Assembly (NCBI RefSeq): GCF_022846255.1
Contig: NZ_AP025682.1
From: Escherichia coli
Lineage (GTDB): Bacteria; Pseudomonadota; Gammaproteobacteria; Enterobacterales; Enterobacteriaceae
Direction: 5' to 3' (one strand)
Length of the DNA: 64,000 nucleotides
Shown here in pieces: positions 1 to 24,000 of this stretch. Each line of letters begins with the position of its first letter. The stretch's first letter is position 1. The position numbers are program-made.

Positions 1-3000
1 TGCGATGAGCTGGTTCCATGCTTTCTCCAGTATGGCGAGATCGAACTCATCGTGGCGTTTATCCCACTCAAACAGGACGTGACAGGCGACGCCGCCATAG
101 CCAATGAGGTGGGTTCGCCCCAGCCAGTAGGCGTGCTGAATGGGCGTCAAAGGGAAGGGCGCATAACGCTCGTCGGCGTCGTGCCGCAACACTTCCGGCT
201 GCGAAGCGGCAGGCGTCGCCTCTGGCTTAGAACAGATAAGCTGCGTGAGTCCATGAGGAGACAGATCCTGCCACGCCCGTTCCGCATTGATGCGTACGCC
301 CAGGTAGTGCTGAATATCGCTACTGAGTTCAAGGAAGAGCAGCGAGTCCATGCCGAGTTGCAACAGATCCTGGTTTGGATGCAGTGACGCCGGATCGCTC
401 AGCCTTAGCTGAACCGCAATCCGCTTTTTCAGCCATGCCATCACCGCTGTTTCATCGCTCAGGCTGCCGTTAAAGGCGTTGTCATCAGCAGGAGGAATGA
501 CCGGCGTTGCGGCTTTTTCTGTGGCGCTGATGTTAAACAGAGCCTGTTGTAACGGGGGCATTTTGTCGGTAAAAACGCGCATCGCCAGTCGCCACGGGGC
601 GCCGCGCATCACCGCCTGTTCCAGGTGCCAGCAGCCTTCGGCATCGCTTAACGCGCCCATACCTCGGCTGGCGAGCGTCGCCAGCATTTCCGGCGTGGCC
701 GCCCGACCGCTTTCTCCCCATGCGCCCCAGGCGACAGAGAGCGTTTTCGGCGCATCAAGGGTGGAAAACTGCTGGGCCAGCCCGTCCAGGTAGCCGCAGG
801 CCAGCGCATGGGCGCTCTGACCCGGCGCGCCGAGGGTGGCGGCAGCGGAAGAGTAGAGAATAAGATAGCGTCCGTCGTGGTTGCGCAGGGTTTGCAACAG
901 CTGGCTTGCCGCCTGCGCTTTTACCGCGAAAACGGCAGCCAGCTGGTGGTCATCAAGCTCCTGCAAGGGCGCGTCAGCCAATACGCCAGCGGCATGAATC
1001 GCTCCGGCAATGCCGCCGTTGGCCGCCAGATCGTCAAGAACCGTGGCCAGTTGCCCGGCATCGCCCACATCACAACGGCAGACGCGCGTCTGCCCGCCCT
1101 CCACGTCGCGTAGCCATGACTCATCCACGCGCGGCGCCAGCAGGGCGATGCGTCGCGCCCCTTTTTCTCTGAGCCAGTTCACGGCAAGGCGGCCTAATCC
1201 GCCAAACGCTCCGGTCACCAGATGCCAGCGGCTATCGCCGGTAAACACGTTTGCCGGTAATTCAGCGGCGCATCCCGTATTGGGCGACAGTGAAGGAAGC
1301 CAAAGGGTGTCACCCCGTGCGGCGAGCCAGCGCTGTGATAGTGAGACTGCACTCAACCCTTGATGCAGCGTTTCCCACGGGGTGTTTTCGGCGAGATCGA
1401 TGGCGGCAAGCAACCGTTCCGGCTGTTCGTTGGCCGCGACGCGAAGCAAGGCCCATAGCGCGTGATGGGATGCAGAGAGTGCTTCATTTTCCTCGACTCG
1501 CCACGCGCGGCGAGTAACCACAATCAATCCGGCTGCGCTGGCGGTGAGCGCTGCTATCACTTTCTCCGCTAAGGCCAGCGTATCCTCGCTCTCCTCAACA
1601 ATCATCAGTCGTGAAGAGGCGTGCGGATCGTGAATGATGCCGTATTGCGCCAGCTCGTCGCTGCGCGCAAGCGTACCGGCGCTGAAGCTAAAGGTAAGCG
1701 GATGGTCAATGCTGGCGACGTTGAGGGGCGTCCAGCGCCATTGATAATGCGTTTGCGGCGCAGGAAGAGGCGCGGCGGGCGATAGCGGCAGCCACTCGCC
1801 AGCAGGATGACGGGCTTCAACGCGCATCTGACCGCGGGAAAAGGCTTCGTTTTGCCAGCTTAAGCGAACCTTCCCTAGCCACTCCGGGGCGGCGACGGGG
1901 GGCGGTTCCACAGGCAGAGCGTCGCCATGACGCTGTGAAAGCAGACGCCAGGCCTCCTGCCAACGGGCGTTAAACCGTTCGGGCTGACCTGCGCAATCAG
2001 ACCAGTCGGCGAGATAATCACCGTTATCCGTCAGCGCCTGCCCCAACACGGGTTCTGATGGCGCGGTGAATGTTACGGCGCTAACCGCCTGACCGGGCAG
2101 CGTGGCGAGAATGATATGTTCGCTCATCCCGGCGGTCGGGCTGCCATCCTGCGGTAGCCACGCCACTTTGCTGAATCCGGCGTGGCGGCACTGTTGTTGC
2201 CACTGAGCGGTGGTGAGGAATAACTCACCTTCGCGGGCGTCGAGATCCTGTAGCGGAAGAACCAGCGGGCCGAAAACGAAGTCAAACAGACGCATTGGCT
2301 GGGTGATTTCGCGCATCAGCAGGCGCCCGCCCGGCTTGAGCAGGGGGCGCAGATTATCGAGCGTGCGGCCAATATGGCGGGTGGCGTGAATCACGTTCGC
2401 TGCCACGATAAGATCGTAAGACTGTGCCTGGAAACCCTGAGACTGCGCCTCTTTTTCGAGATCCAGCTCGCTATACTTCACAAAATCATAGTCGGCGAAT
2501 TTCTGCTGGGCGCGACGGGTGAACAGCGCCGAGATATCGGTGAAATGGTACTCCAGTGCCGGAACGCCGTTGAGTTCCGGCAGCAGCCACGCGGTGGTGC
2601 CGCCGGTTCCGCCGCCAACTTCAAGAATACGCAACGGCTGGCGGGGCTGACGCGTCTGGACAATGCCGCGTAATACCCCGGCGGCGATTTGGTTGAAATA
2701 GCGGCCAAAGCTGAATTCCTGATACAGCACTTCCACGCCGTCGGAGGCGCTTTGCGGGAAGATAATCGCCACCGGTTCTTCCGCGCCGCTCATCATTTCA
2801 TATAACCGATCGCCGGCACGGGCGATGGTGTCGGGAATAGCCTGAAAACCTTCACAATAACCGGCAAGTTCCGTCAGCAGTGATTCCCGCTGTTGATGTT
2901 CAATGGGGCGGGCGCGGACGTATCGCCCGTCGGTGCAGCGGTAATCGCCGTCGACCACGCAGTTATTCAGCAGGCGCTGGAGTAGCTGCTGGTAGCGGGG

Positions 3001-21000: not shown

Positions 21001-24000
21001 TCGGAGACTTTAAAGGGTTTATCAGAAGGCTTGAGGGTGCGGATTTTTGCGTCGGTAAGGGATATATGGGGGTCACTCCATTATCGAACTAACCTGACCC
21101 CAGATTTGACCACCAATTTTTCCCGATGCGTAGGGTAAAATCAAAATGCACCGAGAAGAGTTTTCACACTAACCTGTTGAATCAACATCAGATAAAGATT
21201 CGCAAGGATGCAAGAAAACAGAAAATTGGCTCCTCTGACTGGACTCGAACCAGTGACATACGGATTAACAGTCCGCCGTTCTACCGACTGAACTACAGAG
21301 GAATCGTGAGAACGGGGCGCATATTACTTAGCGGTACCTTGTCTGTCAACACTAAATTTCATAAGCCATTTCAATTGGTTAATTAATCTGCAAAGTTGTT
21401 AATTAATGAACATTCGTCGCCGAAAACGAGTCTGTATCATTAGCGTGATGCAGTCTCTGCAAAGGATCTTGTTGATAAAATTGGCAGAAACGTTGCCACA
21501 ATGAAGGGAAACGAGGAGCAAAAAGTTCTGGGGCGCTAAAGAAATATTCAGAAAGTACGGCAAAACATTCAGCAGGATCACTGGCAGCATAAGCATCGAT
21601 GCTCGCCGCATTCTCGCCAACCAACTCGATTTCTTCCTGAATGTTGTTCATTGCAGCATGAAGATCGTGTTCCCAGCCAGCAACCTCACGCAACGGAATA
21701 AAGGGAACTCCGCTGGCGCGATCGCCGTTACGGGTGTCCAGCTTATGAGCGACTTCATGAATAATCAGGTTAAAACCAGAAGCATCAAAAGAATCTTGTA
21801 TATCCAACCAGTTCAAAACGATAGGCCCTTGCTGCCAGCTCTGACCTGACTGAACAATACGTTGGTTATGCACCAGACCGATATCGTCTTCCCATTCATC
21901 ATCGACCACAAATGGCGCAGGATAAATTAAGACTTCATGAAAACCATCCAGCCATTCCAGTCCTAACTCCAGAACGGGCAGGCAAAATAGAAGTGCTATC
22001 CGGCAGCTTCTTAATGAATTCAGCTCAAAGCCCTGTAAAGGAACAAGCCGTTTTTGCTGTAAAAAACGTTCGGCAAGAGTGACTAATTTGCTTTGTTCCT
22101 GTTCCGTCAGACACGTTAAAAGGGGGATCGATAGTGCTTCCTGCCAGGGAAGGGCAGTTTGATGTGCTGATTCTTGTACTTTCCAGGGCCACTTAATCAT
22201 CGTTTTGCTCGCAAACTCGTCACTTGAACAAAATTGCACGGACAGGGACTGTTAAAATGCCAAATTTCCTGGCATCATGGCAACCATCTGAACGGAGAGA
22301 TGCCGGAGCGGCTGAACGGACCGGTCTCGAAAACCGGAGTAGGGGCAACTCTACCGGGGGTTCAAATCCCCCTCTCTCCGCCACTTTATCAATGACTTAT
22401 CTCCCGACTTCCCGCCTTGCTTTTCCTAAACAGAACAATCGTAGAATATTCTTGAAGGGTTAGATCGTCACTGTTTTCTGTTCGATACTGTGACATTCAG
22501 CACTTGATTCGCTATGGGTCTGACAGGAAGGTTTCGAGCGAAAATCTACAGTTATTCAGTCGTTTTCTTATCGGTCACCATTATTCTTTTAGACATTGAT
22601 CCTATGAAACTGCCGCAAAGTTGCTGGCGGGAACTGAAGTTGCGTAGAGAAGGGGTCAATAATTGAGCCAAAAAAGGAACGCGGCCGTCAGATTAAAGCC
22701 GCGGGACAAAGTCCATAATTTCCAAGAGTTGTTGAATTTCCCAGCTTTTTTGAAAGCCTTTGTATCATACTAACAAGTAAAAAAGGTTTAAATACCAAAA
22801 TTAACCTATATTTCTGGTTAGCTTTACCATGACAGATGACTTGCTCCTGGAGACATTGGCGCAGCCAGTCTGTATTGGTGAGTTGTGTATTTATTGTTCG
22901 CCGTTTTCTCAGTTTTTTTCTACAGACATAATAAAAAAGACACGTCTCAAGCATGAGCGTGTCTGAGTTTGTCTTATTTATTTGTCTTGGTAAATTATTG
23001 TCGTTACTACCAGGCACTGTTCTGTTAAATAATTGAAGTCAGCGCAAAAAAATCAATGAGACATCATCTCCTCGACCACTTCTTTGCTACTCAACTGATA
23101 TGGATAATACGTTGGCCAGTTTTCCATTTCATTCAATAAAGACTGTTGGGTATCATTACCCATAAAAATGTGAAAATGAGATGATTTTCGTGGTGCAATT
23201 ATATGATCGCTAAATTGAATATATTTAGGGGCTTTGCTTTCAGGATCTTTACATTCGAATAAGTAACGAACGCCTTTCTTGCCTGATTTATAGGTGAGTA
23301 TTTTGTATCCATCGTAATCATATTTACAGGATGTTGTTTCATTATGTCTATGGAATTCAACAATGCCGTCCTCAATGCCAATCATCTCGATATCTGTCAC
23401 ATAACCTTTGCGATAATAATCTTTAATTTCAGCAAATGTTTTGGTTTTATCTGCATCCGCTTTCTTCTGAAAGACGGGGTCAAGTTTGCCACTTTGCAGT
23501 AAAGGATAAACGGATTGCCAGACTCCATCCCAGTCACTGAGCGTTCGGTTTTGTACATTGGTATCATCAAAAACACCATTAGCAGCTTTTTGTTCGACCT
23601 CTGTTAAGGGTTTGCCGTGTGAGTGATGACCATGCGAAAAGGCAGGAGCGCTAACAATAAAGACGCCTAAAGCAACAGCCAGTTTATGAAGACGAATCGC
23701 CAAAACAGTTTCCTCCAGAGTTAATGTACATGATGTATAATGTTATATTGTAACATATGGCGAAATGCAATAACTCTTAGGAAACGAGAGCATAGTTTTC
23801 TCAGGTGTATTTTCCTATCTTATTGAAATAAAATAAATTATTCTGGTGATGAAAGGTTGATGACAAACGAAACATAACTTGATGCGATCTGTGTGGGCCG
23901 GATAGGGCGCTCGCGCCGCATCCGGCCGGGATAACGCGTACTTTGTTGGCAATATGAAGTTATAGAGATAATTTGTTGTGAACCTGCTTGCGTAACTGGT

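Follow-up and report, generated by a model that had tools for sequence, protein, structure and literature searches.

The high-pathogenicity island (HPI) of Yersinia, which carries the genes of the yersiniabactin siderophore system, has long been studied and is a major determinant of both virulence and fitness in extraintestinal Escherichia coli, Klebsiella and Yersinia. The islands of Yersinia retain both flanking repeats as well as a distal, AT-rich segment past fyuA; that of Y. pseudotuberculosis is excisable. The E. coli form closest to the locus described here is the common-type HPI at asnT, also called PAI IV in strain 536. In this type, the border next to fyuA shows a unique deletion through which the direct repeat was lost, so that the island is now chromosomally fixed (Schubert et al. 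2009, PMC2606025). ICE-type HPIs, represented by the element of E. coli ECOR31 and the Klebsiella ICEKp family, share the ybt core and the integrase family with this locus and possess, in addition, a module for conjugative transfer, while their borders are intact; the ECOR31 element resides at asnV (PMC2606025).

We analysed a 64,000-nt stretch of E. coli DNA (contig NZ_AP025682.1; hereafter, the window), in which positions 1-21222 almost certainly constitute the common-type, fixed yersiniabactin HPI at asnT. As such, the island is an ordinary, already known and fully described feature, carried by about 40% of the complete genomes of E. coli (~2210 bearing its integrase gene, int, among 5426 surveyed); its occurrence here merely marks the source strain as yersiniabactin-positive and adds nothing new on the system. 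Over positions 1-24000, identity to many E. coli chromosomes in RefSeq was 99.99%, with 3 bases different, and this near-identical DNA is annotated as irp1, irp2, ybtA, ybtP, ybtQ, ybtX, ybtS, integrase, tRNA-Asn, mtfA and tRNA-Ser. A first-pass annotation of the window had listed the same eight island genes in canonical order, which both RefSeq annotation and protein matches bear out: the biosynthesis, transport and regulator genes are intact except for irp1, which is partial. Their order is that of the common type (int-ybtS-ybtX-ybtQ-ybtP-ybtA-irp2-irp1, followed there by ybtU-ybtT-ybtE-fyuA), as are the insertion at asnT and a G+C content above that of the backbone. We found no structural difference from the common type; the window copy falls into a subset whose integrase gene starts with ATA. 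It also carries three private SNPs relative to its best database matches. The fliC end of the window, for its part, diverges from these 3-SNP genomes.

The G+C content of the island was 0.585, as compared to 0.492 for the remainder of the window (21223-64000) and 0.438 for the adjoining segment (21223-32000). This contrast, tested on 1-kb windows (Mann-Whitney p = 1.6e-8), agrees with the earlier claim of a GC-rich island next to an AT-rich downstream backbone, and third codon positions followed suit (GC3 of 0.66-0.69 in the ybt genes vs 0.41 in mtfA). The claimed tRNA-Asn border was likewise recovered, by ARAGORN and Rfam, with the P4-type integrase gene adjoining the 3′ end of the tRNA gene at a distance of 161 bp. 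Relative to mtfA and serU, asnT is positioned as in K-12, a strain in which yeeJ directly follows asnT. Homology to K-12 breaks off 4 nt beyond the tRNA (window position 21223) and picks up again inside yeeJ; the island end therefore lies near 21222 and not at 21215, as the first-pass annotation had it. The portion in view, moreover, is not the integrase-proximal half but about two thirds of the island (21.2 kb of roughly 31.4 kb). In a Raoultella HPI copy, exactly the 17-18 bases of the attachment core are common beside int, after which the sequences diverge. The island will have entered the chromosome when the P4-type integrase recombined it, site-specifically, at the 17-bp core of the tRNA-Asn 3′ end, and it lies between asnT/mtfA and yeeJ. 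The type of integrase, the asn-tRNA target and the 17-bp core are the same in the HPIs of Y. pestis, Y. pseudotuberculosis and Y. enterocolitica 1B, as are the yersiniabactin genes, whose protein products show very high identity.

Table. Island genes, border elements and predicted regulatory features, in window positions
Feature	Position	Strand	Remarks
irp1, HMWP1 polyketide synthase/NRPS	1..5901	-	5′ 5.9 kb of the 9.49-kb gene, which leaves the window at position 1; RefSeq annotation
irp2, HMWP2 non-ribosomal peptide synthetase	5989..12096	-	2035 aa, intact, no internal stops; RefSeq annotation
Fur-box-like site, irp2 promoter (putative)	12141..12159	.	GAGAATAATAATTATTAAC; 15/19 to consensus (consensus scan)
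Perfect 12-bp inverted repeat upstream of irp2	12171..12204	.	ACCCGAAACGGG-N10-CCCGTTTCGGGT; z = -5.7
Terminator-like hairpin after ybtA	12223..12255	-	14-15 bp GC-rich stem, then UUCUUU; intrinsic-terminator-like
ybtA, AraC-type activator of ybt operons	12287..13246	-	319 aa; RefSeq annotation
Predicted Fur box, divergent ybtA/ybtP promoter	13318..13336	-	GTGAATAATAACCATTATC; consensus scan
ybtP, half of an ABC transporter (forms the inner-membrane importer together with YbtQ)	13413..15215	+	600 aa
ybtQ, second ABC transporter half	15202..17004	+	600 aa; RefSeq annotation; ABC permease/ATPase profile matches
ybtX, MFS transporter	16997..18277	+	426 aa; RefSeq annotation
ybtS (irp9), salicylate synthase	18305..19609	+	434 aa; NCBIfam equivalog TIGR03494, 682.5 bits
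Terminator-like hairpin after ybtS	19647..19698	+	16-bp stem, then CUUUUGG; -25.7 kcal/mol, z = -6.2
int, P4-type tyrosine recombinase	19803..21065	-	420 codons, frame intact; start codon ATA instead of ATG
17-bp attachment core, 3′ end of tRNA-Asn	21226..21242	-	CCAGTCAGAGGAGCCAA; sole copy in window
asnT, tRNA-Asn(GTT), integration target	21227..21302	-	ARAGORN and Rfam

The far border of the island was examined in relatives. A genome with 3 bases different in the 26.9 kb that it shares carries the remainder of irp1 together with ybtU, ybtT, ybtE and fyuA directly upstream, just as the first-pass annotation had predicted for the DNA beyond position 1; upstream sequence devoid of the remaining yersiniabactin genes, which it had named as counter-evidence, was not what this genome contains. 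From these relatives we infer that the source genome carries ybtU, ybtT, ybtE and fyuA together with the same far border. The second 17-bp repeat, a possibility that had been left open, is absent from the near-identical genome: even a search tolerating up to 3 mismatches found no copy of CCAGTCAGAGGAGCCAA near fyuA, and in 49 kb of this genome copies of the core occur solely inside three asn tRNA genes. Instead, about 1 kb of island DNA, rich in AT, comes after fyuA in the relatives and ends in a direct fusion to a 5′-truncated yeeJ, downstream of which the near-identical genome encodes a glycosyltransferase (yeeL) and then shiA. Missing from the relatives are the spacer between asnT and yeeJ and the initial ~218 nt of yeeJ (positions 3630-4213 of the K-12 locus sequence). 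This fyuA-yeeJ deletion junction recurs in 2055 complete genomes (coverage of at least 80%; HPI-negative genomes match the yeeJ half only), that is, it is missing in about 7% of the ~2210 int-bearing genomes. In sum, the asnT context of the common type is seen in the window itself, and the border deletion, which takes away the repeat and part of the backbone, in its near-identical genomes.

These observations bear on whether the island might still be mobile. A HPI of the Y. pseudotuberculosis type would have two 17-bp repeats, a functional integrase and an excisionase encoded beyond fyuA, and could excise and then reinsert at asn tRNA genes. While the integrase frame, encoding all three domains, is uninterrupted, the tRNA-side core is perfect and the far island end lies outside the window, this reading is very improbable and largely refuted by the deletion junction and the missing second repeat in relatives. 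Of the two flanking repeats, the window holds one copy, the other side being judged on relatives: the 3-SNP relative has no second repeat near fyuA even at 3 mismatches, and in the 2055 junction-bearing genomes the island ends on that side in a deletion reaching into yeeJ. As compared to the Yersinia islands, the distal part is cut in the relatives to about 1 kb after fyuA, leaving no room for distal HPI genes. Moreover, int starts with ATA, and the common type has been stated to be fixed (PMC2606025). The fixed, common-type island, in contrast, accommodates these features; the copy would no longer be able to excise by integrase/att recombination, because the fyuA-side repeat is missing in near-identical genomes and the integrase start codon is ATA.

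More improbable still is a HPI of the ICE type, such as that of ECOR31 or Klebsiella ICEKp, with a ~35-kb conjugative module beyond fyuA and both repeats intact. Such elements do exist in E. coli (PMC2606025), and about 150 int-bearing genomes are without the common junction. However, the ECOR31 element sits at asnV and the window copy at asnT beside mtfA and serU, and every genome with a 99.99% match to the window has the island in its short form, with the deletion; in the near-identical genome, no conjugative transfer (type IV secretion/mobilisation) module follows fyuA. We therefore rejected an ICE-type island on the grounds of the asnT location and the short form in near-identical genomes. 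The third candidate, another NRPS/PKS island at an asn tRNA that had been misnamed, such as the colibactin pks island at asnW, is refuted: asn tRNA genes are likewise used by pks islands, whose P4-type integrase is related, and the int probe maps to two places in many genomes, but RefSeq annotation agrees with the yersiniabactin identity, YbtS, YbtP and Irp2 match the yersiniabactin-specific Irp9 (431/434), 6p6i_A and HMWP2/Irp2 fragments, respectively, and in a PDB search with the irp1 fragment colibactin proteins were only distant matches.

We next consider the integrase of this common-type island. Its product comprises the Pfam domains Arm-DNA-bind_3, Phage_int_M and Phage_integrase and is identical to the Raoultella copy at 413 of 420 positions. 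In Raoultella and in three other E. coli copies the gene starts with ATG, while the ATA start occurs in at least 861 of the ~2210 int-bearing complete E. coli genomes (roughly 40%), including Nissle and 83972. PGAP annotates the gene as intact despite the ATA start. When the genome collection was scanned with a 26-nt int start pattern (ATR...), a single species representative matched, Raoultella planticola; its copy sufficed to identify ATG as the ancestral start, on a scan too narrow to serve as a species survey. Given the ATA start codon, the integrase is probably poorly made. There is perhaps an even chance that the change from ATG to ATA is a lineage-marking loss of function, or strong down-regulation, that arose after the island had been immobilised; if so, a large proportion of extraintestinal E. 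coli would carry the integrase as a relic undergoing decay. Compared with the Raoultella copy, int differs by seven nonsynonymous and one synonymous change and ybtS by two and four, respectively, a pattern suggestive of relaxed selection on int, albeit with too few changes for significance and, except for the start codon, unpolarised. A literature search of incomplete coverage yielded no mention of an ATA start of the HPI integrase.

Seen more widely, the "unique deletion" junction described from the 72-strain ECOR collection (PMC2606025) now appears in 2055 of 5426 complete genomes, which, like the frequency of the ATA start among island-bearing genomes, is a modest, confirmatory result. Together, the junction and the ATA start fit passive spread of the island by homologous recombination of flanking DNA, a published model, and not by its own recombinase.

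With respect to the siderophore system itself, a NCBIfam scan of nine proteins passed curated equivalog cut-offs for YbtS (cut-off for TIGR03494, 325 bits) and MtfA only. Since NCBIfam holds no yersiniabactin-specific HMMs for irp1, irp2, ybtA, ybtP, ybtQ and ybtX, the names of these genes derive from near-identical annotated or solved sequences. Indeed, YbtS is identical to Irp9 (2fn0) at 431 of 434 residues and to 5jy9 at 432 of 434, residues 1-600 of YbtP align to 1-600 of 6p6i_A, a chain of the YbtPQ transporter (1317.6 bits), and the irp2 product gave near-full-score matches to the HMWP2/Irp2 fragments 7ry6, 7jtj and 5u3h. The possibility raised in the first-pass annotation that alignments might speak against irp/ybt orthology did not materialise. 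The irp1 fragment is an open frame without internal stops that matches KS-AT type I PKS profiles; searched against the PDB, it returned generic polyketide synthases and no chain named HMWP1. YbtX resembles the RhtX/FptX family of siderophore transporters at a score under the curated cut-off (NCBIfam), and the similarity of YbtA in NCBIfam is limited to its C-terminal AraC-type HTH. RefSeq places the ybtP start at 13503, 13413 being used here. According to roles known from the literature, YbtS would make salicylate, and HMWP2 and HMWP1, with YbtU, YbtT and YbtE (encoded outside the window), would assemble yersiniabactin; FyuA, whose gene likewise lies outside the window, would serve together with the YbtPQ ABC importer in uptake of the metal complex, with YbtX as an accessory MFS transporter.

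As for regulation, the predicted Fur box of the divergent ybtA/ybtP promoter differs by a single base from GTGAATAATAAGCATTATC, the Fur binding site of ybtA on plasmid pESI (PMC11225919). The Fur-box-like site of the irp2 promoter pairs with this box as an inverted repeat, and direct Fur binding has been reported for the irp2 promoter of the pESI copy (PMC11225919). The 12-bp inverted repeat upstream of irp2 is assigned as a putative YbtA repeat-sequence site, because pseudopalindromic 'YbtA RS' elements have been described in all HPI leader regions (PMC8725597). In line with the regulation described in the literature, Fur would repress expression via its boxes in the promoters of irp2 and ybtA/ybtP, and YbtA would activate it at repeat sequences near them. 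The terminator-like hairpin after ybtA has a predicted folding energy of -29.3 kcal/mol (z = -6.0), and none of 200 shuffled sequences folded as well. In the hairpin after ybtS, the stem is completed by a window-specific base at position 19684.

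The island at the left end of the window is, in every testable respect, an example of the common-type high-pathogenicity island (HPI) of E. coli. The ORF list gave the large open frames anticipated here, each in the anticipated orientation and with no internal stop, and ARAGORN, confirmed by Rfam, located one tRNA-Asn and one tRNA-Ser gene. When window positions 1-24000 were searched by megablast against 5426 complete E. coli genomes, many chromosomes matched full length at a reported 100.0% identity, and at least 80% of the query was covered in 2234 genomes (~41%). The near-identical genome NZ_AP022161, whose ~49-kb locus (L001) we used as a reference, differs at only three positions in 26.9 kb (3873, 19684 and 20416), two of them amino-acid changes (A677T in irp1, G217E in int) and one intergenic; window coordinates equal L001 coordinates minus 22113. 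The RefSeq names on its matching DNA read irp1, irp2, ybtA, ybtP, ybtQ, ybtX, ybtS, tyrosine recombinase, tRNA-Asn, mtfA and tRNA-Ser; together with the ORFs, they bear out the irp1-to-int gene set in canonical order that the first-pass annotation had proposed.

Protein comparisons likewise upheld the irp/ybt orthology, with three products matching chains of the yersiniabactin system. YbtS reached 682.5 bits against the salicylate synthase equivalog (cut-off 325) and shares 431/434 residues with 2fn0 (a solved chain named Irp9) and 432/434 with 5jy9. YbtP (600 aa) matches chain A of 6p6i, 6p6j and 8vsi end to end, chain B of 8vsi carrying the name "yersiniabactin-iron ABC transporter YbtQ", and the irp2 product gave near-maximal scores against three fragments named HMWP2 or Irp2 (7ry6, 7jtj, 5u3h). 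For irp1, ybtA, ybtQ and ybtX, the profile and structure libraries searched gave no specific model or structure, and the names are those that RefSeq assigns to DNA 99.99% identical to the window. The RefSeq start of ybtP (PGAP, 13503, 570 aa) is probably 30 codons too short, since the ORF starting at 13413 aligns over residues 1-600 with the solved 600-aa chain 6p6i_A. Windowed base composition agreed with the reported GC-richness of the island relative to the downstream backbone: GC was 0.585 in 1-21222, 0.492 in the remainder of the window, and 0.438 in the adjacent 11 kb (island versus rest, 1-kb windows, Mann-Whitney p = 1.6e-8), and GC3 was 0.66-0.69 in the ybt genes versus 0.41 in mtfA.

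The tRNA-side border was located by comparison with K-12 MG1655, where the gene order is msrQ-zinT-yodB-serU-mtfA-asnT-yeeJ. Homology to K-12 spans mtfA and asnT and ends 4 nt past the tRNA, at window position 21223. The 17-bp sequence CCAGTCAGAGGAGCCAA, taken here to be the HPI att core and treated as a pointer, not as evidence in itself, forms the 3′ end of the tRNA-Asn and occurs once in the window. Beside int, an HPI copy in Raoultella planticola ATCC 33531 is identical to the window to the end of these 17-18 bases, beyond which its sequence is no longer that of a tRNA; this independently supports the length of the core. Taken together, the two limits place the island end at ~21222; the earlier reading of an end at the tRNA-Asn 3′ terminus thus stands, with its boundary moved 7 bp from 21215. 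At the int-proximal end of the Raoultella island (positions 2940-3000 of a 6-kb locus), the 17-bp repeat stands alone, ARAGORN having found no tRNA gene in the locus; this suggests that asn-tRNA islands there are arranged in tandem or have been rearranged. On the backbone side, yodB (K-12 b1974, cytochrome b561) is missing between serU and zinT, where 222 bp of unrelated AT-rich DNA (22831-23052) replace 995 bp of K-12 sequence. This arrangement occurs in about 2303 complete genomes, a number near that of HPI-positive genomes, and the stretch may therefore be a flank travelling with the island.

The far border lies outside the window and was read from relatives. Upstream of window position 1, the reference locus carries the remaining part of irp1 (full gene 9492 nt), ybtU, ybtT, ybtE and fyuA, as had been anticipated. 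Read this way, the whole island measures ~31.4 kb (L001 11890-43335), and the integrase-proximal 21.2 kb in view amount to about two thirds of it instead of the half first assumed. Past the fyuA stop, ~1 kb of AT-rich DNA (GC 0.28-0.41) is followed by homology to K-12 yeeJ that begins near nt 218 of the gene; K-12 positions 3630-4213 of the asnT locus, which take in the spacer between asnT and yeeJ along with the 5′ end of yeeJ, have no counterpart. The second 17-bp repeat sought beyond fyuA was not found: with three mismatches allowed, the 49-kb locus holds no such 17-mer outside its three asn tRNA genes. A probe of 601 bp with the junction at its centre was covered (≥80%) in 2055 of the ~2210 int-bearing genomes, almost all at ≥99% identity; in HPI-negative genomes, such as K-12, only the yeeJ half matched, at ~92%. 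A junction so widely shared argues strongly for the same far border in the window's own genome. The inverse autotransporter adhesin gene yeeJ, 7 kb in K-12, persists in the reference (L001 9435-12242) as a 750-bp ORF starting in island-derived DNA and a frameshifted Ig-like fragment, the remnant being only about 92-95% identical to the K-12 gene.

The junction in the relatives fits exactly the published description of the common-type E. coli HPI, which lies at asnT in all ECOR strains except ECOR31 and in which a unique fyuA-border deletion took away the direct repeat together with some of the neighbouring backbone (PMC2606025). Loss of the repeat renders site-specific mobilisation impossible, and the island spread with its flanks through homologous recombination (PMC2606025). 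A mobile island of the Yersinia type would be flanked by two repeats, the second of which the relatives lack; one of the ECOR31/ICEKp type would carry a transfer module, which is missing beyond fyuA in the near-identical genome. The common-type HPI has been characterised for decades and nothing about it here is new; only two side results are of modest interest, namely that one deletion junction is confirmed at genome scale and how often the ATA-start int allele occurs.

The int gene, an open frame of 420 codons whose first codon is ATA, encodes all three domains of a P4-type tyrosine recombinase (Arm-DNA-binding, central and catalytic). As the ORF finder accepts only ATG, GTG and TTG, it reported a 347-aa ORF from Met74, whereas PGAP annotates an intact, full-length gene from ATA. 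ATG stands at this position in the Raoultella copy and in three further copies from E. coli. Counting exact 61-mers across the complete-genome collection, ATA was found in at least 861 of ~2210 int-bearing E. coli genomes (≥39%; 842 of the window type and 19 of the 83972 type), including Nissle and 83972, and ATG in at least 1017 (76 canonical, 404 of the 2013C_3963 type, 537 of the C31 type), about 330 being unassigned. Translation initiates very poorly from ATA in E. coli, and a start at the following ATG in frame would forfeit the arm-binding domain, so that very little integrase is probably made. Relative to Raoultella, int has seven nonsynonymous and one synonymous substitutions and ybtS two and four, a pattern consistent with relaxed constraint on int, in numbers too small for significance. 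Because a second att site is lacking, the condition of int has no bearing on the main conclusion.

Yersiniabactin is built by HMWP2 and HMWP1 with YbtE, YbtU, YbtT and the salicylate synthase YbtS, and its metal complex is imported by FyuA and YbtPQ. The four operons (ybtPQXS, ybtA, irp2-irp1-ybtUTE and fyuA) are repressed by Fur and activated by YbtA (PMC8725597; PMC11225919). The Fur-box-like sequence at the divergent promoter is one base off the ybtA Fur binding site reported for plasmid pESI (PMC11225919). Two repeats agree with the pseudopalindromes ("YbtA RS") that have been described in every HPI leader (PMC8725597) and are putative elements of this kind. One of the three differences from the best database matches, position 19684, falls in the ybtS hairpin, whose stem is completed by the base in the window; the database allele breaks one pair.

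Sequence features of the island and its surroundings (window coordinates)
Feature	Position	Strand	Remark
Fur-box-like 19-mer	12141-12159		irp2 promoter; 15/19 to consensus
Perfect 12-bp inverted repeat	12171-12204		just upstream of irp2 Fur box; putative YbtA RS
Strong terminator-like hairpin	12223-12255		after ybtA
Pseudo-repeat related to the 12-bp inverted repeat	about 13273-13305		putative YbtA RS
Fur-box-like 19-mer	13318-13336		divergent ybtA/ybtP promoter; 15/19 to consensus
Strong terminator-like hairpin	19647-19698		after ybtS
int first codon	21063-21065	-	ATA
att core	21226-21242		
tRNA-Asn(GTT)	21227-21302	-	
tRNA-Ser(CGA)	22294-22383		
RseX	31263-31352	-	small RNA (Rfam)
DsrA	39688-39774	+	small RNA (Rfam)

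Beyond the island, the small RNAs DsrA and RseX lie where expected in the backbone. A low-GC patch (0.37-0.41) between fliE and yedL, at ~52327-53765, looks like a decayed islet; for its counterpart in the near-identical genome, the annotation lists a fragment of an integrase and a DUF5503 pseudogene with a frameshift. Only six SNPs separate the window from NZ_AP022161 over 1-59033, followed by sharp divergence, and ~59034-64000 (fliT, fliS, fliD, fliC, fliA) best matches the H1-flagellin strains LF82, NRG 857C and Nissle (99.4%), together suggesting a recombination breakpoint near the flagellin locus.
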